IMG/VR virus record: IMGVR_UViG_3300037400_005125
Span: 25,721-89,720 of that record
Length of the DNA: 64,000 nucleotides
Strand: one strand, 5' to 3'
Origin: a virus
Lineage: Duplodnaviria; Caudoviricetes
Shown here one piece after another: positions 5,201 to 64,000 of the stretch. The position numbers were made by a program, and so were the translations under genes. Positions within the stretch are counted from its first letter, which is position 1. The number at the start of each line of letters is the position of its first letter. The notes beneath the pieces are model-generated. The model was given only the letters and a program-made list of their open reading frames with translations, was not told where the DNA came from and did not search any database.

Positions 5201-5820
5201 TTGTATTGTGAGATATCCATATTTCCAATACCGCCATCAAGTTTATACCCCTGGCATTCATCACCGTTTGAATTGATTGGAATGTATGGTTCAATCATCA
5301 ATGCGTCAAGATTATACCCTAATTTTGAGCAATCACTAGTACCACCAGATGCACTAGCTTCACCAACATAGAATTTTAAAGTATCGTACTTTGAAGACTC
5401 ACAAGTACATGCGGTGGTAGCGCCAGTCTCAAAAGACTTATAGCTGCCACGTGAACGAAGTAGAGCAACAGCCTGTCCATTTGCTGTAACAAGCCAAGCA
5501 GGACCTGCATTATAACCACTCAAACCAAGAACACGAACAACCTTAAGTTGCTCTGACTCGCTCAAGTAAGACTTAGCGATATAAGGCAACTCGTATTTAG
5601 GGTACTGGCTTCCCTTGTATTTCTCCGTACTTGTTCCACCGAATATATCCTGGAACTCACGCCAATTGGCGATATCCATTACCTGGAAAGCAGGACCTTT
5701 CTGGGTCTCACCAACAAGACCAAGTGTTGTAATACCAAGGCTACGAACTGCGTAGTTAAGGTCTATTTCCCTTGAATAGATACCAGGTGAAACATGTATT
5801 CCTCTTGCATTATCTGCCAT
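2287..5820 (-). CDS. Contractile tail sheath protein, unusually long (1177 aa)
   Basis: N-terminal SPGIYSREIDL..GLVGETQKGP; C-terminal YPWFAPAG..RG, RINPI, WGQKNL, LNRIAVRRLL, FEPND, IYFKP..ALEYIVIDF. Confidence 0.93.
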   Translation of the reverse strand: MADNARGIHVSPGIYSREIDLNYAVRSLGITTLGLVGETQKGPAFQVMDIANWREFQDIFGGTSTEKYKGSQYPKYELPYIAKSYLSESEQLKVVRVLGLSGYNAGPAWLVTANGQAVALLRSRGSYKSFETGATTACTCESSKYDTLKFYVGEASASGGTSDCSKLGYNLDALMIEPYIPINSNGDECQGYKLDGGIGNMDISQYNHGRFKIVGWKDSHEESELEPVREARDNYKSVLSNTASTEEQIAVAKKAYEDAKAAVAGYFEYAVSLNPSDKEYILNVLGTKPYDGDAYVFVESLYDVALDQGIVDGTLTKIDDELTGYQVYYTADYCHHEPVSAIMTIPQAALKRKHVGMRFLADSATTTDSAFTSVAYDYSTGQPYMLGMINDSGNVVENTAFTKAAISTTMLNSFSGLSKDDKKVANAIPAIFKMAAGQIYTVRQYTTQDGKRHYYYGFYSPGSVNNVCKTYNDADEGKGKQLDPTNMYGNLLTGGHGGMNGGIEREYPNIGVNAKWATLVLNNADGLYYKMRTIKEEDTDVTQNITPVTLDLNDYKSAYRYASTPWIVSNLKGDYEQVEVNRLFRFHTISDGSNSNYEIKVSIENVRPDAGTFDVVVRNVFDSDESPVILERFTHCTMIPGDSGYIAFKIGSFDGVYEAKSKYITVEVNDSTAARTSVPAGFLGYPIPQYSGTPITGDAKTGIKFPTLAYNRYFDPDIKNRKQYFGLSSWVGVDIDNFTFKGNKAYIDNPAFLTSGFHLDSRIDYNKGGGTAYSGLTVDGDKGYNFECVSTDSRTSTLSEPPVIGTEEEMYGSIYEYVNLRKFTVYFYGGFDGWDDYRDERTNTDEYKMSQYRGYVNQGSGEGYAFNKIKNPDLLQLNQNGITSDWYAYLSGIRQFANPEASDINVFATPGIDYVNQKLLVEEAIEMIEEERADSIYVVTTPDKPSGAGDYVDEMYTPEEAVTNLEDTEIDSNYTCTYYPWVKYLDQDNNQYIYLPATKDAVRNFAQTDNTAYPWFAPAGIERGNVDCVRAHFITKIGDEDVLYDGRINPIKTFAQDGPKIWGQKNLQINESQLNRIAVRRLLLRMRKLVAISCIGLIFEPNDPTTKQSFLSTVTPIMDSIRSNRGISDYRIEINDTIESRERRELPVKIYFKPYNALEYIVIDFILTPEGVSFDDI

Positions 5821-6221: not shown

Positions 6222-6429
6222 AACAATTTGTTTTTATTATTAATAAATATCGCCAAATTTTTGAAAAGACATAAAAAAAAAAGGGAACGATATACTTGTT
6301 GACACAAAATAACGTTCTTACATAAGTATACAATAAATGAGGAATTATTTCAATACAGTTCATCATTTTTTTATTTAACATCAATATTTATTTAAAGAAA
6401 TAACTTAATAAATAACAAACAAAACATAT

Positions 6430-7803
6430 ATGAAATACTTAAAAAAATTCAGTACTCACTCTGAGTATGAGACATACATTAACGGTAGTGGAGCAATTCT
6501 ACCAAATGTATCAATCTGTACAACTGAAGGTGATGTGCATTATAATCCAACCGTTGCTGTAACAGGTGTATCACTTAATAAAAGTGAGTTAAGCCTTAAT
6601 AAAGGTGATTCTGAAATCTTGATAGCCACTGTATTACCAAGTAATGCAAGTAATAAATCAGTAACTTGGTCATCAAGTGATGATAGTGTATTCACTGTTA
6701 GTAATAATGGTCTTGTAACTGCTGTAGGCGATAGTGGAAATGCTAATGTAATAGCAACAACAGTTGATGGCGGATTCACAGCACAATGTGTTGCAAACAT
6801 CACACATGACTATTCACAAGACTACTTCACAATGGTGGTAACAAGTGGTGGTGATATTAAATTCAGTGGCTCAACAACAGCAAATACGCTGTCTTATTCA
6901 AAGGATAACGGTGCTAATTGGTCATCTGTAACAATTGCAGATACAATATCTGTTGTTGAAGGTGATAAGGTTCTATGGAAAGGAACGCCAACACCACAAC
7001 CATCTAAAGGTATTGGTAAGTTCATTGGTGGTACTGATGTTAGATATTCAGTAGAAGGTAATGCAATGTCATTACTGTTTGGTGATGACTTTAAAGACCA
7101 AATAAGTCTTAGTGGTAAGAATTATGCATTATATGGTTTATTCAGGGGCAACACCAATGTAACAAGTGCTGAAAACTTATCATTACTTGCAACAACGTCG
7201 ACAACTTCCTGTTATAGCTATATGTTCAGAAGTTGTACAAGTCTAACGACAGCACCTGAGTTACCTGCAACAATGTTAGCAAATGAGTGTTATAACGGTA
7301 TGTTCTATGATTGTACAAATCTAACGACAGCACCTTCTGTGTTACCTGCTACAACGTTGGCAAATAACTGTTATACCCAAATGTTTTGTGGTTGTACAAG
7401 TCTAAGGACAGCCCCTGAGTTACCAGCAACAACATTGGCAAATAACTGTTATAGCTTTATGTTCAATGGTTGTACAAGTCTAACGACAGCACCTGAGTTG
7501 CCTGCAACAATGTTAGCAAATGAGTGTTATCAAAATATGTTCCAAGATTGTACAAGTCTAACGACAGCACCTGAGTTACCCGCAACAACGTTGGTAATTA
7601 GCTGTTATAGCTTTATGTTCAGTGGTTGTACAAGTCTAAGTTCAATTAAGTGTCTTGCAACAAGCATTAGTGCACGTAACTGTACATATGATTGGGTAAA
7701 TGGTGTTGCAGCAAGTGGTACATTTACTAAGGCAGCAAGTATGAGAAGTTGGACAAAAGGTATTAGTGGTATTCCAACCAATTGGACTGTGAAAAATGCA
7801 TAG
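6430..7803 (+). CDS. Adhesin-like protein: conserved N-terminal module, Ig-like (Big_2-type) domain, about six 26-aa LRR-like repeats
   Basis: MKYLKKFSTHSEYETYING..LPNVS..VHYNP N-terminus; VTGVSLNKSELSL..VTWSSSD..VTAVG Ig motif; LTTAPELPATxLAxxCYxxMFxxCTS repeats. Confidence 0.8.
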   Translation: MKYLKKFSTHSEYETYINGSGAILPNVSICTTEGDVHYNPTVAVTGVSLNKSELSLNKGDSEILIATVLPSNASNKSVTWSSSDDSVFTVSNNGLVTAVGDSGNANVIATTVDGGFTAQCVANITHDYSQDYFTMVVTSGGDIKFSGSTTANTLSYSKDNGANWSSVTIADTISVVEGDKVLWKGTPTPQPSKGIGKFIGGTDVRYSVEGNAMSLLFGDDFKDQISLSGKNYALYGLFRGNTNVTSAENLSLLATTSTTSCYSYMFRSCTSLTTAPELPATMLANECYNGMFYDCTNLTTAPSVLPATTLANNCYTQMFCGCTSLRTAPELPATTLANNCYSFMFNGCTSLTTAPELPATMLANECYQNMFQDCTSLTTAPELPATTLVISCYSFMFSGCTSLSSIKCLATSISARNCTYDWVNGVAASGTFTKAASMRSWTKGISGIPTNWTVKNA

Positions 7804-7816
7804 TAAAATATTATAT

Positions 7817-7850
7817 AAGAGGGATAGTTCAAGTGGACTATCCTTTTATT
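7817..7850 (+). terminator. Intrinsic terminator of the cassette 1 cargo gene
   Basis: GGATAGTTC-aagt-GGACTATCC stem followed by TTTTATT. Confidence 0.65.
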
Positions 7851-8029
7851 ATGCCACTTTGTTATGTGCATACCAATGATAGTATACATCACGCTTGAAC
7901 ATCATATATTCAATATCCACAACAGTAGATAGTGACAATGCATCATAAGTTGCTGAAAGTTTTGTCCTTTCAGCAACTTTGTATATTTATTCAAAAGGAA
8001 CGACTTGTGTCAACAAGTATATCGTTCCC

Positions 8030-8059
8030 AAAAAAAAAGAGCAACCATTACAGTTGCTC
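8030..8059 (-). terminator. Intrinsic terminator of gene 8048-9445; its U-tract is the cassette 1 insertion site
   Basis: Minus strand GAGCAAC-tgtaatg-GTTGCTC-T9, directly followed by the GGGAAC TIR. Confidence 0.8.
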
Positions 8060-9445
8060 CTCATCTTCATTAGGGTTAATCAATATATGTTCTTCCTCTA
8101 TTTGTTCATCAAGCGACGATTCTGGTATATTTTCAAGGTCTATAACTGTTTCTGGGTCATAACCTATTAGAACCACACCAGACTCCGAATGAAGGTCATC
8201 CCTTGTTATTTTAACGGTTATTTCATCGTCTTTCAAAAATTTTATTTCATTATCAAGACTCATTACCTCCCCATTAACTATAAGGCTAAAATCGTGAACA
8301 TTATCAGTCTCTACTGAATCAAGAACCATATCCTTGTCAATTGTAAATGAAAGCTCAAGTGTACAATCATCAAATCTCATAAATACTTTCATTACTTTAT
8401 ACTTATATCTGTTCTCTGGGGGAACACAGCAATCATCGTTTGATTCCACTAGTTCAGCAATTTCTGGTGGAGGTGGTACTTTTTCACCAATTACTGGTAC
8501 TTCACATAACTCTGTTTTGTCTACCATAGTACTAAGGTAATGCCCCTTATGCTTTTCTGGTTCAAACATTACATCTTCTTTTGAAACCCACCAGTCTGGT
8601 TTACCTGGGTGCATACCACCTTCAGGGGCTGTTATAAACTGAACCCTTTCGTCTGGTCTCCTATTCTTTCCTCTCCTATTTATTATACCAGTTGCATCAG
8701 AATCGTGAGAAGACATAATTAGTCTTGAAGGTATTCTCTCAACCTTGTAATCTTCTCTCCTTATTATATATCCCTTCAGCTTAATCTTAAATGTCTGAGA
8801 GTAATACTTACGGTCATCAATGGTATATTCTGACTGGTCTGATATATCCTCAAGAGTCAATGGCATAGGGTGGTCATTAGGCGAAACATACACATTAATT
8901 GCGCTGAATTCATAGTGCATAAGTTCATTCATTTCATTAAGCAACTCCATCTTATTAGTGATAATAGACACAGAATACATGAAATTAACTGAGAATGGTT
9001 GTTTCATTGTGTACTTATCATATGCCTCTGTTCCATTCTCTTGTAGTACAGGAACATAAAACATTGCAAAATCCTTATGACCTGGTATGTTGAAATAACT
9101 AGACTGGTTTTCTCCCTTCTGTGGATTATTCTCACGAGTAATGGTCTTGAAATTCATTATCATGTTACCATAATCATCAGTCTGACTCCAGGTTTGTGTA
9201 TATTCGCTAAGTCTTTGCGTTGAATACAGCTTATATGTTGGAAGTCTAACACCGTCATACTCAAGGTTGAATTTCTTGTCAACCCAATTGTACATTTCCT
9301 GGTCTATGTCAGAGTACTCAATAGGTTTTGGAAATGGCGTTCCATTCTCCAATATGAGCTTTGACATGTTCCTCCTTCTTTCAACACCATATGCGTGGTG
9401 TCTTAGTCTGAGTTTATCCCTATATGGTTTTGGCTGTATTAACAT
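8048..9445 (-). CDS. Probable tail terminator / sheath-completion protein (T4 gp15-like) with C-terminal extension
   Basis: DIDQEM..W, P.SVNFMYSVSIIT.KM..LN and Y.QTFKIKLKGY pattern; near the sheath gene; family assignment from memory of the motif. Confidence 0.5.
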   Translation of the reverse strand: MLIQPKPYRDKLRLRHHAYGVERRRNMSKLILENGTPFPKPIEYSDIDQEMYNWVDKKFNLEYDGVRLPTYKLYSTQRLSEYTQTWSQTDDYGNMIMNFKTITRENNPQKGENQSSYFNIPGHKDFAMFYVPVLQENGTEAYDKYTMKQPFSVNFMYSVSIITNKMELLNEMNELMHYEFSAINVYVSPNDHPMPLTLEDISDQSEYTIDDRKYYSQTFKIKLKGYIIRREDYKVERIPSRLIMSSHDSDATGIINRRGKNRRPDERVQFITAPEGGMHPGKPDWWVSKEDVMFEPEKHKGHYLSTMVDKTELCEVPVIGEKVPPPPEIAELVESNDDCCVPPENRYKYKVMKVFMRFDDCTLELSFTIDKDMVLDSVETDNVHDFSLIVNGEVMSLDNEIKFLKDDEITVKITRDDLHSESGVVLIGYDPETVIDLENIPESSLDEQIEEEHILINPNEDEEQL

Positions 9446-9504: not shown

Positions 9505-9732
9505 ATGAGGCAGATTATAAGACTTACAGAAAGTGACCTTCACAAGATTGTCAAGGAATCGGTAAACAAAATACTTAAAGAAGCAAATTGGTCAAATGCA
9601 TACGACGATGATTTCATGGGCCCTAACGCAAGACTAGAAGATTTATATCCAGACGAATATCCAGAAGAGGATGAAGAAGACCCATTAACAATTGCGCATA
9701 ACTGGAAAGAAGACCATCGTGGAGAAATATAA
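9505..9732 (+). CDS. Small acidic protein with ESDLH leader motif
   Basis: MRQIIRLTESDLHKIVKESVNKILKE; TATTTATA upstream. Confidence 0.75.
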   Translation: MRQIIRLTESDLHKIVKESVNKILKEANWSNAYDDDFMGPNARLEDLYPDEYPEEDEEDPLTIAHNWKEDHRGEI

Positions 9733-14359: not shown

Positions 14360-14494
14360 ACATTATTTATCCATAAATACATTTTCTTTTGTTAAAATTT
14401 GGATTTTTGAATTATTTAACATATCTTTGCACTAAGAAGCGATGACTGTTTTGGTACAGCCTACAACTTCAACACTAACTTAACAATTTTTTTT

Positions 14495-26155: not shown

Positions 26156-27411
26156 ATGAGACACTGTAAGAACTATTGGAAAAATAAAAACAATGTATTT
26201 GAGGAGTCAAAAAAATATACTTCAAGGTCATCGTTTAACAAGCATTCAAGAAAGGCATATGATGAGGCAAGAAAAAATAATTGGCTTGATGAAATGACAT
26301 GGCTTATCAGTAAAAATGTGTTTGTTGATAAAGTAGATAATATTTACAGATATTATTTCAAAAATGAAAATGCTATATACATTGGTAGGACAATCTATCC
26401 AGAATTAAGGGATTATCAACATAGGACTACAGTTAACGATACTGTTTATAAATTTGCTAGTAAGAATTCCACTACCATACCACAGATGGAAGTCATAGAA
26501 ACAAACATAACAGTTCCGCAAGGTTCAAGAAAAGAAATATTTTGGGAACAGTATTATAGAGACAATGGGTATATAGTGTTAAACAAAAAAAAATGTGGTG
26601 GGGTAGGTTCTATATCAACTGGAAAATGGAGTAAATCAAAGTGCATAGAAGAATCAAAAAAATATAAAACTAGAAGTGAGTTCTCAACTGGAAATAGTAA
26701 TGCATACCAAAAATCAATAAAAGAAGGTTGGATAAATGAAATGATTTGGTTAAATAATAATAGAAAATATCCTAAAGGATTTTGGACAATAAAAGAAAAC
26801 GTGTTGGAAGAAGCAAAAAAATATAACTCAAAAAAAGAATTTGAAAAGAAAAACATTAGTGCATTTTTAGCTGCATATAGATATGGATTTATTAAAGATA
26901 TGAATTGGCTTGTAAAGCAAAAACAACACAAGAAAAATCATTGGAACGAAACTGAACTTAAATCAGAGTCAAAAAAATATTCAACTAGAACTGAATTTTC
27001 TATCAAAAACAGGGCAGCATACAATGCCGCTAAAAAACTTAGCATACTTGATGAATTATTTCCAAAACAAGAAAAAAAAAAGTTGTTGAGAGACACCCAA
27101 AAGGCTACTGGAAAAACAGGGAAAACATGATGAATGAAGCTATGAAATATTCAACCAAAGAAGAATTCCAAAAAGGAAATCTTTCTGCTTTTCTTGCAGC
27201 TCATAAATACGGCTACATAGATGAAATGTATTGGCTTGTTAAACAGAAACAACATAAAAAAGGATATTGGACTTACAAGCACATTGAAGAGGAGGCGCTA
27301 AAGTACAATACCAAGACTGAATTCTTCAAAGGAAACCAGACAGCATACCGTGCTGCATTGAAAATGGGAGTAATTGATGACTTCTTCGTTATGAATGACT
27401 ATGTGCAATAA
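26156..27411 (+). pseudogene. GIY-YIG endonuclease with tandem repeats, split by a frameshift at an A10 run (ORFs 26156-27130 and 27127-27411)
   Basis: NIYRYY..IYIGRT..R..QH..E..LN GIY-YIG motif; EAKKY..R.EF.K.N..AY..A...GW repeats continue across the shift (..ELFPKQEKK/VVERHPKGYWKNRENMMNEAMKY). Confidence 0.7.
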
Positions 27412-27443
27412 ATGAGCAACCGTGATTGGCTGCTCATTTTTTT
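27412..27443 (+). terminator. Intrinsic terminator
   Basis: AAATGAGCAACC-gtgatt-GGCTGCTCATTT followed by T-tract. Confidence 0.7.
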
Positions 27444-27466
27444 GTATATCTATACACTATTGATAT

Positions 27467-27492
27467 TTAGAGTCAACAGGTATATAGTTCCC
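27467..27492 (-). repeat. Orphan, diverged copy of the cassette terminal inverted repeat
   Basis: Minus strand GGGAACTATATACCTGTTGACTCTAA, 22/26 identical to the cassette 2 TIR at 49916; abuts the stop codon of gene 27493-28008. Confidence 0.7.
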
Positions 27493-28008
27493 TTAAAAAT
27501 TATATTTTCGTCTAAGTTCCATATATACTGCATCTGCAATTTTCATTCTCAGAGGTATTGACATAATCTGTTTGAATATCTGGGGGCATCTTGAAATAAA
27601 TTCTTCTTTCCTCCATTTTAACTGCTGATTTTGCGTCCCTCCTGGGAACATCAAAAGTCGAGGATGAAAGCAAGAAAGAGCTTCTTCCGATAATTTTTCA
27701 TCATTCATTACTGTATCAACAACGTTCTTGATGATTTCGTCGTTCCTGCCTTCCGATAATATCTTGTTTACAGATTCTTTCACAATTCTGTGAAGGTCAC
27801 TCTCTGTTAGCCTAATGATGGTTTGTTCCTCAACTTTTTCTGGAAGTCCCTTATGTTTTGTCTCGGCAAAATCCTTTACATCATCCATCGACATTCCTTT
27901 TGCAGCTTTCTTTATCTTGCTGCTTGCATTCTTCATTTCGCCCTTCTTGTATGCATCTACCATACCAAAGAACCTCTGTTGTTCTTTACTTTTACTTTTA
28001 CTTGGCAT
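27493..28008 (-). CDS. DUF3008-like N-terminus plus internal ESDLH motif
   Basis: SKSKEQQRFFGMV..KKG..MS..DVKDFAETKHKGLPEKV then IIRLTESDLHRIVKESVNKILSE. Confidence 0.65.
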   Translation of the reverse strand: MPSKSKSKEQQRFFGMVDAYKKGEMKNASSKIKKAAKGMSMDDVKDFAETKHKGLPEKVEEQTIIRLTESDLHRIVKESVNKILSEGRNDEIIKNVVDTVMNDEKLSEEALSCFHPRLLMFPGGTQNQQLKWRKEEFISRCPQIFKQIMSIPLRMKIADAVYMELRRKYNF

Positions 28009-35337: not shown

Positions 35338-35550
35338 TAAAAATGGAGGTAGAATTTCTACCTCCTTATTGTTTTTATTGATAAATATTATATAATTACT
35401 AAATAATAATATATTAAATAATATTAATATATGGCCTATATTATATAATATATATTAAATATTTTCTATTTTAAAAAATTAGTATATTACTTGTTTTTTT
35501 AATATTTTTTATATATCTTTGCACAAGTAGAGACGAAAATTAACTTTTTT

Positions 35551-36291
35551 ATGGAATTAAAACCACTTAAACACTACTACAGCAAGGAACTTAAAGATTG
35601 CCTTCGTGATGGCGATAACAAATACATAAAGGAATATACCACAAATGGATTTAAGAAATCTTACCAGATGTGGAATGATTATTCTCATGAATCTATTGAT
35701 AAGTTCTTCAGCGATTTTATTAAAGAATATCCAGAGGAATATCTAATTGAGAATTGTAAGAAATGTCATCAGGTGATGAGTCATGTAAACTTCAACAATC
35801 TATTTGATATTTTACTCAGAAGACTTGTTATAGATGCTTTCATTGGGTTCAAAGCTGAAGATGTTGTAAGGGAGAATCTTATGAAACATGGTAAAAAAAT
35901 TCATGATTATAAAATTTTATCAAGGAAAAATGAAATTGAACTTGATACAAAATATGGTATCGATATGATGACATTCAATGATAATGGGGTTGAAGCATTT
36001 TTCCAGGTTAAAAATACATCTACATTCAGTCATGATGGAAATTACATAAAAGGAATAAGAAAAGAGTTCTTTGATAAGGAGTATCAGGCTAACCAGTACT
36101 TTGGTGGTGAAAAGTATAAAATGTTAATTTTTTATATATACGACAAGGACGCATTCATAAACGATGGAGAGTTCAGGTTTTTTATTAACCCAGCTGTTGA
36201 TAGATGTGGTTTCTTCCTAGACCATTTAATCAGAAGGGACGGGAGTTTAAAATTGAATGTAAAACAATTAAAATCAAAGGTATTATCATGA
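35551..36291 (+). CDS. Hypothetical protein, possible PD-(D/E)xK nuclease
   Basis: G.KAE..V..LD.KYGIDMM..FFQVK; TATCTTTG promoter at 35514. Confidence 0.45.
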   Translation: MELKPLKHYYSKELKDCLRDGDNKYIKEYTTNGFKKSYQMWNDYSHESIDKFFSDFIKEYPEEYLIENCKKCHQVMSHVNFNNLFDILLRRLVIDAFIGFKAEDVVRENLMKHGKKIHDYKILSRKNEIELDTKYGIDMMTFNDNGVEAFFQVKNTSTFSHDGNYIKGIRKEFFDKEYQANQYFGGEKYKMLIFYIYDKDAFINDGEFRFFINPAVDRCGFFLDHLIRRDGSLKLNVKQLKSKVLS

Positions 36292-47870: not shown

Positions 47871-48061
47871 TGAAAAAGAAAGTTGATTTTTCAAAGTTAT
47901 CTAATGCTGAGATAAACTTGAAGATAATGGGTTATGAAAACGAATACAACGTTAAAAAAGATAAAATAATATCTTTAGTTGGTGATTTACAAGAATTAGA
48001 TGACTTGTTTATAAAAGCTAATGAAGAACTTAAAAAAAGGGGTGTTTTGAGCAATGGGTAA
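47870..48061 (+). CDS. Small hypothetical protein
   Basis: Translationally coupled on both sides. Confidence 0.6.
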   Translation: MKKKVDFSKLSNAEINLKIMGYENEYNVKKDKIISLVGDLQELDDLFIKANEELKKRGVLSNG

Positions 48062-48980
48062 GGTTTTAATGAAAATAGGAAAGGTAATAGAGGTTGAAGA
48101 CAAATTTTCAAAAGACTATGCCAATGGACTTAGAGTACGTGCAAAACTTGATATAGACAAACAGAAACAGAAGATAAATGAGCTTATTCCTTGGGCTTTT
48201 CCATTGCTTCCTAAGTCATTGCAGGTAGTTCCTAAGGTTGGAGAAGCTGTATTAATTATTGCCGACGAAACTGGTGAATTTTCTTCAGCACAGAGGTATT
48301 ACATAGGACCGCTTATATCGCAGCCACAATATAATACGTTCTGTTCTTCAGAGGATGCCACAACCCTTTTACAAAATTCTGAGAGAAATCCCATGCCAGC
48401 TATTGAATGGAATAGCAATACTAATGGTTCATTCCCTGATTCTAGTGACATTGCCGTTGTTGGTAGAGGTTCTGAGGATGTCATACTCAAATATGATGAC
48501 AAATCAAAGACAAGTGAAGTAGATATAAGAGCTGGTATAAGAGGTGATGCTGGTTCTGGGTTAGTAGAAAACGGTATTGTAGGTAATGTTATATTCAATG
48601 GTACTGACCCAGCATATATACAATTGAAATATAAAAAGGGTATAGCAACTGGTGAAAAGAATATGGCTAACAGTCTTATTAATATAGTGGCTAATAGAAT
48701 TAATATAATGAGTAATAGAGATTCTGAAGTTAGTCATGACTTAATGGATAGAGATACATTAGTTAAGGAAGAGGAAATGGATAATATAATGGATAGGCTT
48801 CATCAAGTTCCTAAAGGAGACAAACTAGTAGAACTACTTGAACTTATGAAGGGAGCTATTCTTCATCATGTACACCCTTGGGCTGGTATGGAACAATGTG
48901 GAGATAAGCCAGGATTCATTAATCAACTTAAGGATTATGATATGCAAAAGATTCTGTCTGAGTATGTTAGAATATCATAA
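48054..48980 (+). CDS. Baseplate hub/spike protein, gp5/VgrG-like OB-fold
   Basis: IGKVIEVED..RVRA..PWAFPLLP..VPKVGEAV.I..RYYIGP; C-terminal HHVHP metal-binding motif. Confidence 0.7.
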   Translation: MGKVLMKIGKVIEVEDKFSKDYANGLRVRAKLDIDKQKQKINELIPWAFPLLPKSLQVVPKVGEAVLIIADETGEFSSAQRYYIGPLISQPQYNTFCSSEDATTLLQNSERNPMPAIEWNSNTNGSFPDSSDIAVVGRGSEDVILKYDDKSKTSEVDIRAGIRGDAGSGLVENGIVGNVIFNGTDPAYIQLKYKKGIATGEKNMANSLINIVANRINIMSNRDSEVSHDLMDRDTLVKEEEMDNIMDRLHQVPKGDKLVELLELMKGAILHHVHPWAGMEQCGDKPGFINQLKDYDMQKILSEYVRIS

Positions 48981-48984
48981 AGAG

Positions 48985-49014
48985 AATGCGGTCACTGTTG
49001 ACTGCATTTTTTTT
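48985..49014 (+). terminator. Intrinsic terminator of the gp5-like gene; its U-tract is the cassette 2 insertion site
   Basis: ATGCGGTCA-ctgt-TGACTGCAT stem with T8 (49007-49014), directly followed by the GGGAA TIR. Confidence 0.8.
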
Positions 49015-49042
49015 GGGAATGATATACTTGTTGGCACTAAAA

Positions 49043-49070
49043 ATGGGTGAGCCTTAATTGGTTCACCCAT
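49043..49070 (-). terminator. Terminator of the cassette 2 cargo gene
   Basis: Minus strand ATGGGTGAACC-aattaa-GGCTCACCCAT followed by T-tract running into the TIR. Confidence 0.75.
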
Positions 49071-49082
49071 ATATTTTGTTTT

Positions 49083-49802
49083 TTAATAGCCTTTATAATT
49101 ATCGTATACATAATCGCAAAAAGATGCCCAAGCCCTTTTAAAACCACCTTCATCAGCGTTTGCAGTACTGCCATCGTAGAATAAATTTAACTCCTTATAT
49201 ATTTTATTAGCATAAATTTGGAAAAACATCCAACCAGGCATTTTACCGTTGTCATAACAATAAATAATATATTCTCCCAAATTTTTACAACCGCATTTAT
49301 ATAATCTTTCTTTTGTATATGAATCTCCTTTATACCTTAATACAATTTTTGCATGTGATTTAAGCCAGTTTAATGCATAGTCATAAATCTCGTCTTTACT
49401 CATAACATTCTCTTTAGCATCTTTATCAGCAAGTGATTGATAAATTTCTGATTCTGATTTTCTTTTTGTTTTCCCTTTTCTTGCTAATTCTGAATTTCTT
49501 AATTTTTCATCCATTTCAGCATAAGAACCTTTGTCAAATGCCGATGAACCATCAATACTTTTAGTGTTATTATCATATGCATATTTTTGAATTGGTTTGG
49601 CTGCATTATATGCTTTGCTATATCTTTCTTCATCTTTATCATCAGCAGCAGCAAGTTCATTATTGTATTTTCTACGCCAAAGTTTTCCAAGCATATATTG
49701 TCCCCTTCTTGTATCACCAATTTCATTGATTATTGTACTTATTGACTCTTTTATAATATTGTGTAAATCACTTTCAGTGAGTCTAATTTGTTTCTTATTC
49801 AT
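49083..49802 (-). CDS. Cassette 2 cargo: hypothetical protein with ESDLH leader
   Basis: MNKKQIRLTESDLHNIIKESISTIINE; TATTTATA upstream, inside the TIR. Confidence 0.75.
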   Translation of the reverse strand: MNKKQIRLTESDLHNIIKESISTIINEIGDTRRGQYMLGKLWRRKYNNELAAADDKDEERYSKAYNAAKPIQKYAYDNNTKSIDGSSAFDKGSYAEMDEKLRNSELARKGKTKRKSESEIYQSLADKDAKENVMSKDEIYDYALNWLKSHAKIVLRYKGDSYTKERLYKCGCKNLGEYIIYCYDNGKMPGWMFFQIYANKIYKELNLFYDGSTANADEGGFKRAWASFCDYVYDNYKGY

Positions 49803-50029
49803 ATTTTGAATACGTATTTATTCTATTATTTTCTATATAAATACCAGAAGATATAGAAAAACGCATCATTTTCTAACTACATTTTATAATTTAGTGCCAA
49901 CAAGTATATCGTTCCCTTTTTTTTTGTAATTTTGTTAATAGAAAATTTGCTTTTTTAACTTTTTTTATATATCTTTGCATTACAAAACGAGAGAACAAAA
50001 GAGATTGTTTAACTTAATTAATTTTATTA

Positions 50030-50854
50030 ATGGAAACAAAAGATTACAAAGAAGAGAGATTCGAGTTTACGCTTTTTGTAAACGACAACATCATTTGCAA
50101 AAGGAATTTCAGAATTTACAATTTTATCGAGGGTAGCATGGGTACTATCGATTTCAAGGAAAAAGTTGATGAAATTGTCAACTTAATTGATGATGACTTG
50201 AAATCAAAGAGTAGGGTGTATACATGGTATTATTTCAATCCAAAAGAGCCAGATGCTTTTGAGGAATTTGCTGGTCAGCCACTAGAGCCTTGGGCTTGCA
50301 CGTTCAAGTTCGTTGTATCGGACAATAAACGTGACGTGATAACAAAGATTTGGGATGGGTATGCGTATCCAAAGCCAATACGTGAAAAGGTTGACCTCAG
50401 TAACAAAAACGTGAAGGTTACAAACAAGGATGGGCAGACATTCTCCTACGATAAGGAGACGTTTTTCAAGGCAAATGAAGGAAGACTTAGTTTTGAACAC
50501 GAGGTGTTAAAAGCAATGATTTTGGATAAACCAGATGTATTGCTTCAGATTACTAAGAAGATTTGTGAGGCTTGTTCCCCAAGCAGAGAGGAAATCAAGG
50601 AGGCTGGTCGCTTTAATCCGAAGGATTCATCCAAATACCTTACTGGATACACAACATCAGAAGATTATTACCCAGGAAGTGAAACAACAACCAAGACTGA
50701 TGAAAATGGAGAAACAATAAAGGTTTCCAAAAAAATAGGAAAACCAAGAAGATATGCCTACAGTCTTGCCCTTGCAAATAAGAGGGTTGAAAATGCATGG
50801 GGACGTGTAGTAGCTGAGAAAACAAAAAATTACATGAAGTCACTTTATTTTTAA
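50030..50854 (+). CDS. Hypothetical protein (early)
   Basis: TATCTTTG at 49970. Confidence 0.7.
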   Translation: METKDYKEERFEFTLFVNDNIICKRNFRIYNFIEGSMGTIDFKEKVDEIVNLIDDDLKSKSRVYTWYYFNPKEPDAFEEFAGQPLEPWACTFKFVVSDNKRDVITKIWDGYAYPKPIREKVDLSNKNVKVTNKDGQTFSYDKETFFKANEGRLSFEHEVLKAMILDKPDVLLQITKKICEACSPSREEIKEAGRFNPKDSSKYLTGYTTSEDYYPGSETTTKTDENGETIKVSKKIGKPRRYAYSLALANKRVENAWGRVVAEKTKNYMKSLYF

Positions 50855-56706: not shown

Positions 56707-57777
56707 TTACTGTTCTACCTTTGTCCAGTTATACTTTCCTAAGTAATAATTACCTGTTCCCATCCAAGTATCATATCCACTACTACCTATTGGCACTGTT
56801 AATGTACCACCTGTTTCGACATTTTGGAACGTATTACTCTGTATTGTAGGTGCTGTTGTTGCATTAGATACTATACTTGTAAGTTCGCTACAATCTCTGA
56901 AAGCACCAATACCAATACTTGTAACGCCACTACCTATGGTACAACTTGTCATACCACTACACAATTGGAAAGCATAATTATCAATACTTGTAACACTATC
57001 TGGTATTGTTACACTTGTAAGGCTCTCACAATAATAGAAAGCATATTCACCAATACTTGTAACACCACTACCTATAGTGCAACTTATAAAACCACAACCA
57101 TAGAAAGTATAGCCACCAATACTTGTAACACCACTTGGTATGTCTATACTTGTAAGGCTATTACAATTATAGAAAGCACCATAATCAATACTTGTAACAC
57201 TATCAGGTATAGTTACACTTGTAAGACCACTACAATTTTGGAAAGCAGCGCCACCAATACTTGTAACACTATCTGGTATATCTATACTTGTAAGACTACT
57301 ACAATCCATGAAAGCGGTATCACCAATACTTGTAACACCACTACCTATTGTACAACTTGTAAGACCTTTACAATAATAGAAAGCATGACTACCAATACTT
57401 GTAACACCATCTTTTAAGTCTAGTGTAACGGTGTGTTCATTTGTATCTCCAAAATCATATGTACTTACAACTGATTGCTGTTCAACACCATCAATTTTCA
57501 TTGATTCAATTGATTCAATGAACTCGTCAGAAAATAATTGTGTTGAATTTCCCTCTCCAGAACCATTACCTGAGCCACTACCTGAACCTCCACCTGTTGG
57601 AACATATACACAAGTTAATGTTGCTGTCTGTGGTGTTGGTGGTACGGGTGTACTTGGATTATAACGTACTGTATTATTCTCCACTGTAAGTGATACATTA
57701 GGTAGTATTACCCCACTACCATTAATGTAGGTTTCGTACTCAGCATTAGTGCTGAATTTCTTTAAATACTTTGCCAT
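56707..57777 (-). CDS. BspA/LRR_5 adhesin paralog A (8 LRRs, C-cap type GNYYLG.YNWTKVEQ)
   Basis: MAKYLKKFSTNAEYETYING N-module; 23-aa VTSIGxxAFxxCxxLTSxxIPD repeats. Confidence 0.85.
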   Translation of the reverse strand: MAKYLKKFSTNAEYETYINGSGVILPNVSLTVENNTVRYNPSTPVPPTPQTATLTCVYVPTGGGSGSGSGNGSGEGNSTQLFSDEFIESIESMKIDGVEQQSVVSTYDFGDTNEHTVTLDLKDGVTSIGSHAFYYCKGLTSCTIGSGVTSIGDTAFMDCSSLTSIDIPDSVTSIGGAAFQNCSGLTSVTIPDSVTSIDYGAFYNCNSLTSIDIPSGVTSIGGYTFYGCGFISCTIGSGVTSIGEYAFYYCESLTSVTIPDSVTSIDNYAFQLCSGMTSCTIGSGVTSIGIGAFRDCSELTSIVSNATTAPTIQSNTFQNVETGGTLTVPIGSSGYDTWMGTGNYYLGKYNWTKVEQ

Positions 57778-57781
57778 TTTT

Positions 57782-59365
57782 CTATTGTTTATTTTTAATT
57801 ATTATTTTTAATTCATCCTCAAGTTCTTTGCTCCACCCTTCAACGCTGTTGCACATAAACTTGATGTTTGGGTCATCAACCGCCTTTTGGAACTCATTCT
57901 TGAATATTGCTTTATTCCATATACCCAATCTTATCTCACTATCCAATATTGGTTCTTCGTGCTGGAAATAATTGAAATACACATCTTCCAATACATAACT
58001 TTCATTACGCATATTGAATTTATCCCATATCTCCTTTAATTTTTTAAATTCAAAATAGCATGGATAATGTGTGGTATAATTATAATGTGGTAAATTTTCC
58101 CTATCCAATAATTGCCTTGTTTTCCATTTATCATGATTCCAGTATGATGTAGGTTGGTCTTGCCTTCCAATAAAATTTTGTGAATGATAATGTATATCAG
58201 TTATATCTTTTAATACGAATGGCTTTATTGCATAATTATCATCAACCATCCATATAAACTCGTCATATATTTTATTATATTTTTTCATAACAAATTCCAT
58301 ACAATATTGTACGTTTAAATGTTGATTAAATTGGTTTTCTTTTTTAATAAAAGCTGGACAATCTATAAATTCAACCCAAGGGAATTCAATCTTCAGTGAG
58401 TCATCGAATTCACCGATAACAATAAAATGGTATTTAAAATTACAAAACTTTCTCCAACCATTCAAAGCAATTTTAATTTCATTACCTTGAGAACCATTTT
58501 GTTTATAAGGTAAAACAACTAGTATCTCTCTTTTTAATTCTGTAATAAGTTCTTCTTTAATATTCATCATATCTTGATTTATTGTAAAGAATGCATCACA
58601 TGTTCTTGTTTTTCCGAAAAAATACCCACGTGTTTTCATCTTCCACACGTATTCTTCCCATGATTTTGTTATATAGTGCCTTATATAGATTTTATCGTAT
58701 ATTGGTGTGTTTCTATCTCTTTCGAAATTAGTTCTACAAAAATTAGATTCTTTGCTTGGCTGATGTGTATATAAAAAATAATTTTCTTGGTATGTTCTTA
58801 GATTATAACATGTCTTTGAAAGTGATTGTGGTGTTGCTGTAGGCACGTGACCTTGTATTTCTTTGGTATATGTTTCAACAATGCCTTTATTGGTATAATC
58901 TGGTTTCTTAATTAATCCATTTGCGCCATAGCATTTCCATTGCATAATGAATGCATCATATCCATCGAACAAAGATATAACATCATTTAAATTATCATTA
59001 TTATTTTCAAGCGTTATAAATTCATCATTGTCAATAACAAAGCACCAATCATAATCATTTATAGTTTTTAAATATGTTAAACCTTTTCTAATATAAATGT
59101 ATTGAGGGCTATCATTATGGTTGTCACTTTTATTTTTTTTAAGTTCTATTACCCTTTTTTTATTTTCATCATCAAGTGCTGATAATATACTATTTAGAGT
59201 AACTCTATCACCATATTTGTCACATATTTCTTTATGCGAATCGCTATCAATATCCTCAAAGACGAATATATGGTCAATACCTAAATCGAGGTGATATTTT
59301 ATCCATTCATCTAGGTATTCATGTTCGTTTTTTATAACAGTTAATATACAAGATTTCATAAACAT
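57782..59365 (-). CDS. Two-domain glycosyltransferase (GT2/GT92-like N-domain plus second GT-A-like domain)
   Basis: IKNEHEYLDEWIKYHLDLGIDHIF, WCFVIDNDEF; second half NEIKIAL..W..FIWMVDDNY. Confidence 0.7.
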   Translation of the reverse strand: MFMKSCILTVIKNEHEYLDEWIKYHLDLGIDHIFVFEDIDSDSHKEICDKYGDRVTLNSILSALDDENKKRVIELKKNKSDNHNDSPQYIYIRKGLTYLKTINDYDWCFVIDNDEFITLENNNDNLNDVISLFDGYDAFIMQWKCYGANGLIKKPDYTNKGIVETYTKEIQGHVPTATPQSLSKTCYNLRTYQENYFLYTHQPSKESNFCRTNFERDRNTPIYDKIYIRHYITKSWEEYVWKMKTRGYFFGKTRTCDAFFTINQDMMNIKEELITELKREILVVLPYKQNGSQGNEIKIALNGWRKFCNFKYHFIVIGEFDDSLKIEFPWVEFIDCPAFIKKENQFNQHLNVQYCMEFVMKKYNKIYDEFIWMVDDNYAIKPFVLKDITDIHYHSQNFIGRQDQPTSYWNHDKWKTRQLLDRENLPHYNYTTHYPCYFEFKKLKEIWDKFNMRNESYVLEDVYFNYFQHEEPILDSEIRLGIWNKAIFKNEFQKAVDDPNIKFMCNSVEGWSKELEDELKIIIKNKQ

Positions 59366-59441
59366 ATTTTTTAACTATAAATATAATTTATAAGATAAAA
59401 AGAGCAACCGTTGCTGATTGCTCTTTTATATATTTACTTGT

Positions 59442-61175
59442 TTAAGGTATTGCTTGTATTCTACTTTCATAATCACTCCAAACACTTGCTGCCTTATATG
59501 CATCTACGCTACCACTTGGAACATAGATTGGACAGTCATTAGAGGTAGCAAATACGCCATCTCCTAATGTTGGTGGTGTTGTTGCGTTAACAGTTACACT
59601 TGTAAGACTAGTACAATCATAGAAAGCATAAGTACCAATACTTGTAACGCCACTACCTATAGTTATACTTGTAAGACCACTACAATTTTGGAAAGCACTC
59701 TGACCAATACTCGTAACACTATCAGGGATGGTTACACTTGTAAGACCACTACAATATTGGAAAGCATTATAACCAATACTTGTAACACTATCAGGTATGG
59801 TTATGCTTGTAAGACCACTACATCCATAGAAAGCACTCTCACCAATCCATTTCGTGTTACTCTTTAATGAATATGTAGTTAAATTTTTGTCAACTGCTTT
59901 AACAGCATAAATATCAGCATATCTTATATTATTTTCAATTGGTAAACTTTCACAACCACTGAAAGCAAAATCACCAATAGTTGTTACACTATTTGGAATA
60001 ACTATACTTGTAAGACCAGTACAATTATAGAAAGCCTCACCACCAATACTTGTAACACTATCAGGTATGGTTACACTTGTAAGACTAGTACAAAACATGA
60101 AAGCACTTCTACCAATACTTGTAACACTATCAGGTATGGTTACACTTGTAAGACTACTACAATCCATGAAAGCACTACCACCGATGCTTACGGTTCCTTC
60201 TCTGAATGTGCAAGATGTAATGCCACTTGATGTTGTTTTATATGCAATATCATTTATATATATGATATTGCCATAACGATGAGAAGTGTCTGCTGAATAA
60301 GTGTTCCACCAAGGTGTTTCATCGAAAGCCCAACCGCCAATACTTGTAACACCACTTGGTATATCTATACTTGTAAGACAACTACAATTTCTGAAAGCCT
60401 CACCACCAATACTTGTAACGCCACTTGGAATATTGAACACTCCATCGGTATCACTATTCAACCTTGTAAGACCACTACAACTACCGAAGGCACTATTACC
60501 AATACTTGTAACACTATCAAGGATGGTTACACTTGTAAGACTAGTACAATAATAGAAAGCATTAGTACCAATACTTGTAATACCATTACCTATGGTAGCA
60601 TTTATGAGGGTACTACAAGTATCGAAAGCTCTATAAGGTATTTCTGATGTGCTTTCTAAAGTGTATTCAACCTCATGTTCGTTCTCATCAGCAAAAGTAT
60701 ACCAACTAGTTACAGTTTCTTTCTCAACTTCAACTCCATCAATTTTTACTGATGTAACAAAATCTATGAAATATGAAGCTTTCTCATATAATTTTGTGTC
60801 TCCACCTCCTGAGCCACTACCAGAGCCACTTCCACCTCCTTGACCAGGAATATAATTACAAGTTAATTTTATCTGTCCAATATATCCACAATCCTCTGAA
60901 TTTGCTTCAACCAATGTTACAGCACTTACAACACCTGTGTCAGTCCATGTTTCTCCGCTATCATTTGACACCTGCTGCTTTTGCTGTGTATACTTATCAT
61001 ATCCAACACAAGTATAACCGTCATCAACCCATCTGTACTGTGATTCTATTTTCTCAAAATAGTGAATCTCAGATGTGTCTTTTGTCATTGATACATGAGG
61101 AGTACTAAAACCAGTTGTTCCTGAAAAACTCAGCAATTCTGCTGTTGTTTGAAAATTACTTATGAATCTTCCCAT
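59442..61175 (-). CDS. BspA/LRR_5 adhesin paralog B (about 13 LRRs, C-cap type CPIYVP..SRIQAIP)
   Basis: Start moved to ATG 61175 (MGRFISNF) behind TATTTATA; GS linker; LRRs with two non-repeat inserts. Confidence 0.85.
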   Translation of the reverse strand: MGRFISNFQTTAELLSFSGTTGFSTPHVSMTKDTSEIHYFEKIESQYRWVDDGYTCVGYDKYTQQKQQVSNDSGETWTDTGVVSAVTLVEANSEDCGYIGQIKLTCNYIPGQGGGSGSGSGSGGGDTKLYEKASYFIDFVTSVKIDGVEVEKETVTSWYTFADENEHEVEYTLESTSEIPYRAFDTCSTLINATIGNGITSIGTNAFYYCTSLTSVTILDSVTSIGNSAFGSCSGLTRLNSDTDGVFNIPSGVTSIGGEAFRNCSCLTSIDIPSGVTSIGGWAFDETPWWNTYSADTSHRYGNIIYINDIAYKTTSSGITSCTFREGTVSIGGSAFMDCSSLTSVTIPDSVTSIGRSAFMFCTSLTSVTIPDSVTSIGGEAFYNCTGLTSIVIPNSVTTIGDFAFSGCESLPIENNIRYADIYAVKAVDKNLTTYSLKSNTKWIGESAFYGCSGLTSITIPDSVTSIGYNAFQYCSGLTSVTIPDSVTSIGQSAFQNCSGLTSITIGSGVTSIGTYAFYDCTSLTSVTVNATTPPTLGDGVFATSNDCPIYVPSGSVDAYKAASVWSDYESRIQAIP

Positions 61176-61270
61176 AATTTTTTTTATTAATTTATTTACA
61201 ATTATTTTTCTTTTTATTTTAATATAAATATTTGCCAAATAGAGTTTGTCATTATTTATTTTTTATTCTG

Positions 61271-62884
61271 TTATGAACAACTTCCTGGTATTGCTTGTAT
61301 TCTACTTGCATAAGTGCTCCAATAACTTGCCTCCTTATATGTATCTACACTGTTACATGGAACATAGATTGGACAATTATTGGTGTAGTCAAATACCCCT
61401 GAACCTAATGTTGGAGGCACTATTGCATTACATATTATGCTTGTAAGACCAGTACAATATTGGAAAACAGCAGTACCGATACTTGTAACACCACTACCTA
61501 TTGTAACACTTGTAAGACTAGTACATCTAATGAAAGCACCACTACCAATACTTGTAACACTATCTGGTATATCTATACTTGTAAGATTATAACAATTAGT
61601 GAAAGCACTAGCACCAATACTTGTTACACCACTACCTATAGTACAACTTGTAAGACCACTACATTGATAGAAAACATAATTACCAATGCTTGTAACACCA
61701 GTACCTATTGTAACGTTTGTAAGTCTAATACAATAAGCGAAAGCATGTTCACCAATACTTGTAACACTATCAGGTATTGTTACACTTGTAAGGCTACTAC
61801 AATAATAGAAAGCATATTCGCCAATACTTGTTACACTATCAGGTATATCTATACTTGTAAGGCCAGTACAACTTTGGAAAGCATAATTTCCGATACTCGT
61901 AACACTATCAGGGATGGTTACACTTGTAAGGCCACTACAACAATAGAAAGCACTACTGCCAATACTTGTAACGCCACTACCTATGGTACAACTTGTCATA
62001 CCACTACACAATTGGAAAGCACTACTACCAATACTTGTAACACTATCAGGTATATCTATACTTGTAAGGCTTCTACAACCACTGAAAGCAATATCACCAA
62101 TACTTGTAACACTATTAGGGATTGTTATACTTGTAAGACCACTACAATCTCTGAAAGCACCATTACCAATGCTTGTAACACTATCTGGGATTGTTATGCT
62201 TGTAAGTCCACTACAATTAGTGAAAGCACTATATCCAATAATTGTTACTCCATCAGGTATAATTACACTTGTAATACTGCTACAACTTTTGAAAGTGCTA
62301 GTATAAATACTTGTTGGGTCTTTTAATGTGTACTTAACTGTATGTTCGCCAGTTGTATTGAATCTATATGTTTTTGGTACACTTTGTTGTCTAACACCAT
62401 CTATCTCAATCTTACTGATATTAGTAGTTGCACTTAAAATTTTTGTTAATTTACTTGTATCCGTCACATTGAACTTAGCAATAAGTCTAGTGTCCTTTGG
62501 TTCTTGCGTCAATGAGTAGGTAATCTCAATGTCATGGTAATAAATGCTACCACTTATTGTTCTGCTATCAGCAGTACTTGGATTTGCACCACATTCAACA
62601 GTTACAGAATCTTCACCTTCTGTTACTGTCTCAGTGCAAGCTGTGTCCGTATCAATCTTTCTGTATCTTATTATAATATCAAATGAAGATGAAGCACCTT
62701 CAATTGTTGAAGGATAAGATGAATCAATAACCTCCCAATTAGTCATTTCCTCGCAGCCAAATGGGTTATAATGAACTTCATCTGGAGTGTCAATACAATA
62801 TGACACATTAGGAAGAATCAACCCACTTTCTACATAACTCTCATATTCAGAATGAGTGTTGAATAATTTAATGTATTTACTCAT
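61271..62884 (-). CDS. BspA/LRR_5 adhesin paralog C (13 LRRs, C-cap type CPIYVP..SRIQAIP)
   Basis: MSKYIKLFNTHSEYESY..LPNVS..VHYNP N-module; 23-aa repeats. Confidence 0.85.
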   Translation of the reverse strand: MSKYIKLFNTHSEYESYVESGLILPNVSYCIDTPDEVHYNPFGCEEMTNWEVIDSSYPSTIEGASSSFDIIIRYRKIDTDTACTETVTEGEDSVTVECGANPSTADSRTISGSIYYHDIEITYSLTQEPKDTRLIAKFNVTDTSKLTKILSATTNISKIEIDGVRQQSVPKTYRFNTTGEHTVKYTLKDPTSIYTSTFKSCSSITSVIIPDGVTIIGYSAFTNCSGLTSITIPDSVTSIGNGAFRDCSGLTSITIPNSVTSIGDIAFSGCRSLTSIDIPDSVTSIGSSAFQLCSGMTSCTIGSGVTSIGSSAFYCCSGLTSVTIPDSVTSIGNYAFQSCTGLTSIDIPDSVTSIGEYAFYYCSSLTSVTIPDSVTSIGEHAFAYCIRLTNVTIGTGVTSIGNYVFYQCSGLTSCTIGSGVTSIGASAFTNCYNLTSIDIPDSVTSIGSGAFIRCTSLTSVTIGSGVTSIGTAVFQYCTGLTSIICNAIVPPTLGSGVFDYTNNCPIYVPCNSVDTYKEASYWSTYASRIQAIPGSCS

Positions 62885-62983
62885 AATTTTCTATTGTTTA
62901 TTTTCTATATAAATATCAGCACAAACAACAAATTATAAAAACGAGCATCAACATAATTTGTCAATGCTCGTTAATATTATAAA

Positions 62984-64000
62984 TTATTGTTCTACCTTTG
63001 TCCAGTTATACAAGCCTAAGTAGTAATTACCCGTACCCATCCATACATCATAGCCACTACTACCACTAGGTACTGTTAATGTACCACCAGTCTTGATATC
63101 ACGGAATGTATTACTCTGTATTGTAGGAGCTGTCGTTGCATTGCATACTATACTTGTAAGACTACTACAATATCGGAAAACACTACCACCAATACTTGTA
63201 ACACTATTTGGTATATCTATACTTGTAAGACTATTACAATTATAGAAAACACTCCAACCAATACTTGTAACACCATCGGGTATTGTTATACTTGTAAGAC
63301 CACTACAATATTGGAAAGCACCACTACCGATACTTGTAACACCACTACCTATAGTACAAGTTGTAAGACCACTACAATTTTGGAAAGCATAATCACCGAT
63401 GCTTGTAACACCATTGCCTATAATAATATTTTGTATACTTGTTTCTCCTGAAAACAAGCCAACAGCAGCATTACTTCCAACAGTTAAATCTCTTATACTA
63501 TCACATCCATAGAAAGCACCAATACCAATACTTGTAACACCACTACCTATTGTACAACTTGTAAGACCTTTACAATTTTTGAAAGCACTCCAACCAATAC
63601 TTGTAACACCATCGGGTATTGTTATACTTGTAAGACCGCTACAGTTTTCGAAAGCACTATCAGCAATAGTTGTTATATTATCAGGTATATCTATACTTGT
63701 AAGACCTTTACAATAATAGAAAGCATAACTACTGATACTTGTAACGCCACTTGGTATAGTTATACTTGTTAAGCCACTACAACAATAGAAAGCATTATTA
63801 CCAATACTTGTTACACCACTACCTATTGTACAAGTTGTAAGACTTTTACAATTATAGAAAGCACTCTCACCAATACTTGTAACACCACTACCTATAGTTA
63901 TACTTGTAAGACCAGTACAATAATAGAAAGCATTACCAGCAATACTTGTAACACTATCAGGTATAGTTATACTTGTAAGACTACTACAGCTACCGAAAGC
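62984..64000 (-). CDS. BspA/LRR_5 adhesin paralog D, 5' part beyond the window
   Basis: I translated 64000 to 63457 and found it open and in frame with the tracked ORF (AFGSCSSLTSITIPDSVTSIAGNAFYYC...); C-cap type GNYYLG.YNWTKVEQ. Confidence 0.88.
   Translation of the reverse strand, partial: AFGSCSSLTSITIPDSVTSIAGNAFYYCTGLTSITIGSGVTSIGESAFYNCKSLTTCTIGSGVTSIGNNAFYCCSGLTSITIPSGVTSISSYAFYYCKGLTSIDIPDNITTIADSAFENCSGLTSITIPDGVTSIGWSAFKNCKGLTSCTIGSGVTSIGIGAFYGCDSIRDLTVGSNAAVGLFSGETSIQNIIIGNGVTSIGDYAFQNCSGLTTCTIGSGVTSIGSGAFQYCSGLTSITIPDGVTSIGWSVFYNCNSLTSIDIPNSVTSIGGSVFRYCSSLTSIVCNATTAPTIQSNTFRDIKTGGTLTVPSGSSGYDVWMGTGNYYLGLYNWTKVEQ

Follow-up and report, generated by a model that had tools for sequence, protein, structure and literature searches.

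The stretch of DNA analysed here (64 kb, referred to as the window) is the final part of an 89.7-kb IMG/VR virus record with a CheckV completeness of about 24%. The window encodes a tail sheath (1177 aa), a DNA polymerase, a DnaB-type helicase and NrdD, and homologs of its conserved genes occur in phage contigs from the rumen that are 240-412 kb long; because of these tail sheath and replication genes and the size of the related contigs, the record is taken to be a fragment of a jumbo myovirus-like phage. Two cassettes bounded by terminal inverted repeats (TIRs) lie directly behind conserved genes in this fragment. The features at and around the two sites are listed below.

2287-5820: tail sheath gene, 1177 aa, near the gene at 8048-9445
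6273-6282, plus strand: A10 (T10 on the minus strand), left copy of the cassette 1 target duplication
6283-8029, plus strand: cassette 1, 1747 bp, with 25-nt perfect TIRs, a cargo gene and a transposase remnant
6430-7803, plus strand: cassette 1 cargo gene, 457 aa, with Big_2 and BspA-type LRR (LRR_5)
8030-8059, minus strand: T9 (8030-8038), containing the right duplication copy, and a terminator-like hairpin (8039-8059)
8048-9445, minus strand: conserved phage gene at cassette 1, 465 aa, found in 19 related viral loci
48054-48980, plus strand: conserved phage gene upstream of cassette 2, 308 aa, taken from the ORF list, with homologs in 7 viral contigs
48985-49014, plus strand: intrinsic-terminator-like hairpin (48985-49008) and T8 (49007-49014)
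49015-49916, minus strand: cassette 2, a predicted non-autonomous IS1595-family element, 902 bp, with 27-nt TIRs, a cargo ORF and its own terminator
49083-49802, minus strand: cassette 2 cargo ORF, 239 aa, with an RLTESDLH-type N-terminus
49917-49925, plus strand: T9, right copy of the 8-bp duplication plus one original T, by direct reading
49935-49979, plus strand: promoter-like motif ending in TATATCTTTGCA, repeat family D13/D17, putatively serving the downstream gene 50030-50854

The names gp5-like (48054-48980) and gp15-like (8048-9445), given to the two conserved genes in the first-pass annotation, find some backing in the ESM Atlas, where neighbours of the former carry Phage_base_V (score 0.92) and those of the latter T4-gp15_tss (score 0.79), both weak leads, but none in Pfam or PHROGs, in which neither gene had a match. 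Searches of both sites against the INPHARED phage collection by blastn also gave no match. The motif to the right of cassette 2 belongs to a set of three conserved copies of ~45 nt ending in TATATCTTTGCA (14387-14431, 35479-35523 and 49935-49979), each ~50 nt upstream of a plus-strand gene, namely the DNA polymerase (14495) and the genes at 35551 and 50030. The motif resembles the Bacteroidetes -7 motif TAnnTTTG, and it is likely a phage early or middle promoter of that type. Insertion of cassette 2 left this promoter-like motif intact, the cassette being placed between the motif and the terminator of the preceding gene.

At the cassette 2 site, the hairpin begins 4 nt past the stop codon (TAA, 48978-48980) and consists of a 10-bp stem with a CTGT loop. 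The segment 48975-49014 folds at -17.6 kcal/mol (z = -6.4), and none of 200 shuffled versions folded as well. The T8 that follows is the left copy of the target duplication and abuts the first TIR (49015-49041), which pairs with 49890-49916 over 27 nt with 1 mismatch. Just inside the cassette a bidirectional terminator is predicted (49043-49070), and the cargo protein had no match in Pfam or PHROGs. The ends of cassette 2 are common to four other copies (L163, L082, L156 and L099), which together with it form a sub-group of 0.5-0.9-kb single-gene copies. At the cassette 1 site, which is read on the minus strand, the stop codon (8048-8050) lies within the hairpin loop; the hairpin (8039-8059) has a folding energy of -16 kcal/mol (z = -5.2), and the TIRs (8005-8029 and 6283-6307) match over 25 nt with no mismatch. 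Both sites thus combine a GC-containing hairpin and a U-tract at a stop codon, and intrinsic termination is predicted for each. The hairpin at 48985-49008 was missed by a first terminator scan, and our own rule-based and ViennaRNA-based detectors were used. Direct reading and folding bear out the order given in the first-pass annotation for both sites (stop codon, hairpin, T8-9, TIR starting GGGAA), as well as its statement that, in each cassette, cargo and upstream gene converge (ORFs 49083-49802 on the minus and 6430-7803 on the plus strand).

Cassette 1 retains traces of a larger element. Comparison with autonomous copies by blastn showed that its first 266 bp, its last 84 bp and ~100 bp of the transposase 3' end align, with ~1.09 kb that holds the transposase ORF in autonomous copies being absent. 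The segment 7841-7945 corresponds to the remnant of the transposase gene 3' end and 7947-8029 to the transposase-side end. Since both ends align and the transposase ORF is gone, cassette 1 is an internal-deletion derivative of a passenger-carrying insertion sequence (IS).

A third, partial cassette is present near 27380-27500, with a solo or degenerate TIR at 27474-27492 (minus strand, 2 mismatches) for which no partner repeat was found. The solo TIR adjoins the stop codon of a converging DUF3008-like gene (27493-28008) with no hairpin outside, and a terminator is predicted just inside it (27414-27447). Related loci give a further view of the intergenic slot at cassette 1. Downstream of most of the homologs of gene 8048-9445 (L186-L198) there is a small gene starting MNKKLIRLTESDLHKIVKESV, a leader also found on the cassette 2 cargo and on the window genes 996-1202, 9505-9732 and 27493-28008. 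In one locus (L191:4812-4910) a TIR-like end with 2 mismatches directly follows the stop codon of a 62% identical homolog, with no hairpin outside, and is followed by a terminator and a 492-aa gene with LRR-type repeats in its DNA; this end may represent an independent, older insertion in the same slot. The slot looks hypervariable.

Empty alleles of both insertions were found among related loci. In one relative (L173), in which the neighbouring protein is 99% identical, the site 2 hairpin is followed by T7 and then directly by the DNA to the right of cassette 2, so that all 902 bp of the cassette plus one T-run are absent. In a second (L183, 84% identical), T6 comes after the hairpin of site 1 and leads into the DNA beyond cassette 1; this comparison rests on direct reading, as MAFFT placed the right flank wrongly. 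Both cassettes accordingly read as true transposition events into a pre-existing terminator T-tract, and their absence from relatives at 99% and 84% identity would imply recent mobility. The empty alleles also confirm the earlier reading that the duplicated sequence is the T-tract itself, with the hairpin and T8-9 preserved. With an 8-bp duplication, the observed flanks T8|T9-G (cassette 2) and T9|T10 (cassette 1) imply target alleles of T9 and T11, respectively; for cassette 2, a target allele GCA-T9-G gives T8|element|T9-G. These inferred tracts exceed the T7 and T6 of the empty relatives, and either longer runs drew the insertions or later slippage lengthened them.

The 19-nt TIR core GGGAAYGATATACTTGTTG occurs 5 times in the window compared with 0.05 expected by chance, the five matches forming two complete inverted pairs and one solo end. 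Exact scans recovered the core from 17 viral loci (17 + 8 more with two common variants), from 18 loci of the genome collection, most of them on MAG contigs of rumen Bacteroidales or Prevotella, and from at least 120 metagenome loci, mostly rumen. About 19 exact matches with GC-rich flanks (e.g., in Peregrinibacteria, Woesearchaeota and soil contigs) were left out as chance or unrelated. Many complete copies of 2.1-3.2 kb hold a transposase ORF of 325-340 aa, and six ORFs inside TIR-bounded copies match DDE_Tnp_IS1595 (PF12762) with E = 1e-41 to 1e-48. The zinc ribbon PF12760 is known from all IS1595 groups except IS1016, and it was found at the N-terminus above cut-off in all six transposases. 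IS1595 family members have repeats starting GG, duplicate 8 bp of the target and encode a DDE transposase with a zinc finger (PMC8101967); AT-rich 8-bp target duplications were established by experiment for ISEc69 (PMC7835479), and transporter IS, which carry passenger genes, are confined to IS1595 and IS66 (bioRxiv 10.1101/2021.05.26.445724). The family described here, with PF12762, PF12760, TIRs of 19-27 nt starting GGGAA, 8-bp duplications and an AT-rich target, belongs on these sequence features to IS1595. The window cassettes, which share the ends of autonomous copies and have no transposase gene inside, are best classified as non-autonomous derivatives. A PF12762 search of the whole 89.7-kb record (~24% of the genome) gave no match, whereas two complete 412-kb jumbo phage genomes (G001, G002) have a PF12762 match between the TIRs.

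The passenger gene of autonomous copies is usually convergent to the transposase. In two copies within 360-kb phages (L018:449-1798 and L087:1346-2698), both with clean 8-bp duplications outside ends of the IS1595 type, the sole gene encodes a 375-aa TnpB (OrfB_IS605 and Cas12f1-like TNB), that is, an RNA-guided-nuclease-type gene as the passenger of an IS1595 cassette. Miniature copies (MITEs) without any gene also occur; they measure 165-190 bp and have 8-bp duplications (L021:4535-4699 and L130:284-448, 165 bp; L103:2107-2296). DNA of the BspA-type LRR repeats matches 14-15 of the 19 positions of the TIR core (e.g., GGGATTGTTATACTTGTAA), as seen at 62118-62136, in the LRR genes at 56707-64000 and at L191:5516-6077, and gives spurious TIR matches at 4-5 mismatches; this resemblance is probably due to chance, although an LRR adhesin is the cargo most often carried by the family.

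To define the target, duplications were read from complete copies and flank composition was computed over 174-193 de-duplicated insertion ends. The 8-bp duplication was perfect in 23 of the 25 complete copies. The majority of duplications mix A and T, as in TAAATAAT and AATATTTT, and are not homopolymers, so homopolymeric T/A as the target choice, as suggested in the first-pass annotation, does not hold as a rule for the family; other examples are ATAAAATA, AACATTTA and TTTTGTTT, and one duplication contains both G and C (TAATCCGT). Flank positions -9 to -1 were at least 93% A/T and the background level (~60-65%) was reached already at -10. Because the A/T enrichment ends there, the requirement is for an A/T-only decamer, and the target is an A/T-only stretch of ~10 bp centred on the 8-bp duplication, with a weak tendency for its 5' half to be A and its 3' half to be T. 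The two sites in the window obey this rule as its homopolymer extreme. Within the rule there is a bias toward A- or T-runs of about 2.6-fold. Duplications with at least 7 of 8 identical bases made up 28% of observed ends and 13% of controls. Perfect homopolymers were only ~2-fold enriched against the A/T-only decamer control (p = 0.10 without the window).

Association with terminators was assessed at 113 A/T-only insertion ends, with intergenic A/T-only decamers of the same loci as controls. The rule-based detector, which requires a hairpin stem that stops 6-11 nt short of the junction and a T-rich tail behind it, identified 9 of 113 ends (8.0%) compared with 236 of 9987 controls (2.4%; p = 0.0017; 7 of 108 without the window, p = 0.015). 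With a folding energy threshold of dG <= -7 kcal/mol, the values were 11 of 113 (9.7%) and 77 of 2000 (3.8%), respectively (p = 0.006; p = 0.04 without the window). Terminator T-tracts thus account for ~8-10% of ends but for 2.4-3.8% of intergenic A/T-only sites taken at random; this 2.5 to 3.5-fold excess is probably inflated by the crude ORF-based intergenic masks, in which small genes are counted as intergenic. Without this window the enrichment was significant or borderline (p = 0.015-0.09). Outside it, eleven further ends abut a terminator, with the junction always 8-11 nt after the stem, and ~90% of the 113 ends have no adjacent hairpin. Of the terminator targeting proposed from the two window sites, a real but modest excess is left, and terminators are not the usual destination of the element. 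A first control, consisting of random intergenic 8-mers with at least 7 A/T, had shown no terminator excess (7.7% vs. 5.5%, p = 0.26); it also overstated the homopolymer bias (25-fold), and was replaced by the A/T-only decamers, which match the observed target rule.

The first-pass annotation had also called for a comparison with other poly-T tracts. Given a T-run of at least 7, hairpin adjacency was found for 8 of 15 ends and 149 of 500 controls (p = 0.08; p = 0.23 without the window). Since hairpin adjacency loses its significance among T-runs, most of the terminator excess can be explained by the run bias alone.

Orientation at terminators was random. Among terminator-abutting ends with a readable first internal gene, 7 were convergent with the upstream gene (both cassettes of the window, L062, L082, L099, L189 and L201) and 6 co-directional, or 5 versus 6 without the window, and the orientation bias proposed for the cargo did not survive this count. 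Five of the co-directional cases (L011, L045, L209, L222 and L225) have an upstream gene ending 33-64 nt away; the short flank of the sixth (L114) yielded no upstream ORF. The two genes of an autonomous copy each read inward from their own end, which makes the gene closest to the terminator co-directional whatever way round the element has inserted. The original transposase gene of cassette 1 likewise adjoined the terminator and was co-directional with the upstream gene, and the convergent appearance of this cassette results from deletion of that terminator-side gene. A comparison of end type (cargo or transposase side) with T-rich flanks, based on 32 versus 19 non-independent ends, gave a trend opposite to the proposed orientation. 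The first-pass annotation had named insertion into AT-rich 8-mers without terminator or orientation bias as the outcome that would contradict it; this is largely what the wider set displays, apart from the modest terminator excess.

We consider it probable (roughly 80%) that the cassettes are derivatives of IS1595 'transporter IS' moved in trans, and that an A/T-only target, a run bias and survival explain their terminator sites with no hairpin recognition needed. A DDE transposase supplied in trans would move both cassettes, its source being perhaps a co-infecting phage, the unsampled three-quarters of the genome or the host. The enzyme would bind the 19-27-bp GGGAAYGATATACTTGTTG ends and cut the target 8 bp apart, and the run bias would be one of its own properties. 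Terminator U-tracts, as some of the commonest A/T runs in intergenic DNA, would then be used. An insertion there is expected to rebuild the T-run beside the hairpin and to leave the promoter of the next gene untouched and with its gene, so such insertions would be harmless and persist. Run bias and harmless persistence together could thus account for two of the three copies in this phage lying in terminator T-tracts. The 2.5 to 3.5-fold excess would combine run preference and purifying selection, which are inseparable in these data. One observation sits less comfortably with this explanation, namely that the excess persists among ends located within 80 nt downstream of a same-strand gene end (7 of 32 vs. 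104 of 1509 controls, p = 0.006; 5 of 29 without the window, p = 0.05), and some direct preference for hairpin-flanked T-runs is possible.

Selection contributes to the observed distribution, given that about half of the A/T-only decamers are in coding DNA (7149 vs. 6319) and yet ~19-20 of 25 reconstructed sites (~80%) are intergenic. The preference of the element might be for A/T-richness only, with insertions in coding DNA, promoters and 5' UTRs being lost from lytic phage populations. Besides the intergenic share, the enrichment of ends within 80 nt downstream of gene ends (28% vs. 15%, p = 3e-4), many of them right at the stop codon, is in line with such survivorship. However, the terminator excess among sites just past gene ends is left over, and the A/T-run bias has no obvious selective reason outside terminators, as illustrated by runs at L092 (adjoining a ribosome-binding site), L133 and L166. 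We therefore regard survivorship acting without any run preference as a tentative and rather doubtful account.

The same residual excess could instead be the diluted trace of a structural preference, in which the phage-borne IS1595-type transposase favours T-runs that follow a GC-rich hairpin, through DNA shape or transient hairpin extrusion. If so, the preference would amount to a built-in non-polar landing strategy by which cargo cassettes spread through dense jumbo-phage genomes. We think this unlikely, somewhat more so than survivorship.

The full proposal of the first-pass annotation, dedicated safe-harbour targeting, supposes that the transposase recognises hairpin plus T-tract and places the element at the 3' edge of the U-tract, invariably oriented so that its cargo points toward the upstream gene. 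The two of three window copies at terminators, the eleven further ends with their narrow spacing past the stem and the enrichment over A/T-only decamers are all compatible with it. As a rule it is nevertheless largely refuted by the ~90% of ends that have no adjacent hairpin, by the mixed A/T composition of most duplications, by the loss of significance once a T-run is required and by the near-even orientation count with its clear co-directional cases, the convergence of cassette 1 being itself a product of transposase gene loss; we hold it to be improbable as a mechanism, although the safe-harbour outcome at the two window sites is real. That the T/A runs belong to the element or were added by the insertion process, a reading allowed by a duplication length that is unreadable in a homopolymer and by flanks (T8/T9 and T9/T10) that are not exactly 8 bp, is scarcely credible, because T7 and T6 already follow the hairpin in the empty alleles, unrelated 8-bp duplications are seen at other copies with the same ends, and the runs are direct and not inverted repeats, which places them outside the TIRs.

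With the trans-moved IS1595 derivatives as the preferred explanation, the question of interest is why cargo-carrying derivatives of this kind persist among the conserved genes of rumen jumbo phages. The answer appears to be mostly ordinary, in that the element needs A/T-only DNA and terminator tails offer harmless sites. The present analysis contributes numbers for the target rule (A/T-only decamer with 8-bp duplication, and a modest run and terminator bias) and a clear negative for orientation; the larger insertion set keeps a pattern seen in two cases from being taken for a new targeting mechanism.

For terminator- and hairpin-homing elements the hairpin is a recognition signal that is both obligatory and oriented; class C group II introns home downstream of terminator stem-loops, and IS1397 and relatives of IS110/IS621 target REP hairpins. 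A minority of the present insertions resembles these in being fixed 8-11 nt after a terminator stem and in being non-polar. Unlike in hairpin-homing elements, however, ~90% of the insertions have no hairpin and orientation is random, so that neither a majority of insertions at the structure nor a fixed orientation was found.

Mobile insertion cassettes (MICs) and MITEs, for instance MIC231 of Bacillus cereus, are non-autonomous IS derivatives that are mobilised in trans. The present cassettes are like them in having no internal transposase and in placing IS-type TIRs and a target duplication around a passenger gene (cassettes 1 and 2) or around almost nothing (L021, L130). They differ from MIC231 in that the parent family is IS1595 and not IS231/IS4, the host replicon is a phage, and mobilisation in trans is here an inference. 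Insertion sequences are thought to be rare in phage genomes.

The closest likeness is to the IS1595/tIS/ISEc69-Tn7052 group, with which the family shares DDE_Tnp_IS1595 and the zinc ribbon in autonomous copies, ends that start GG, an 8-bp AT-rich target duplication and passenger genes carried within the IS. In ISEc69 insertions, too, the outer positions of the 8-mer are almost 100% A/T (PMC7835479). In contrast to described IS1595 elements, which are from bacterial chromosomes and plasmids, the present copies occur in lytic-type rumen jumbo phage genomes, many of them are transposase-less and keep a single cargo gene, the A/T-only requirement reaches one base beyond the duplication on each side, and the family shows a measurable A/T-run bias. 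The family type is therefore a known one, IS1595, and what is unusual is its setting in jumbo phages.
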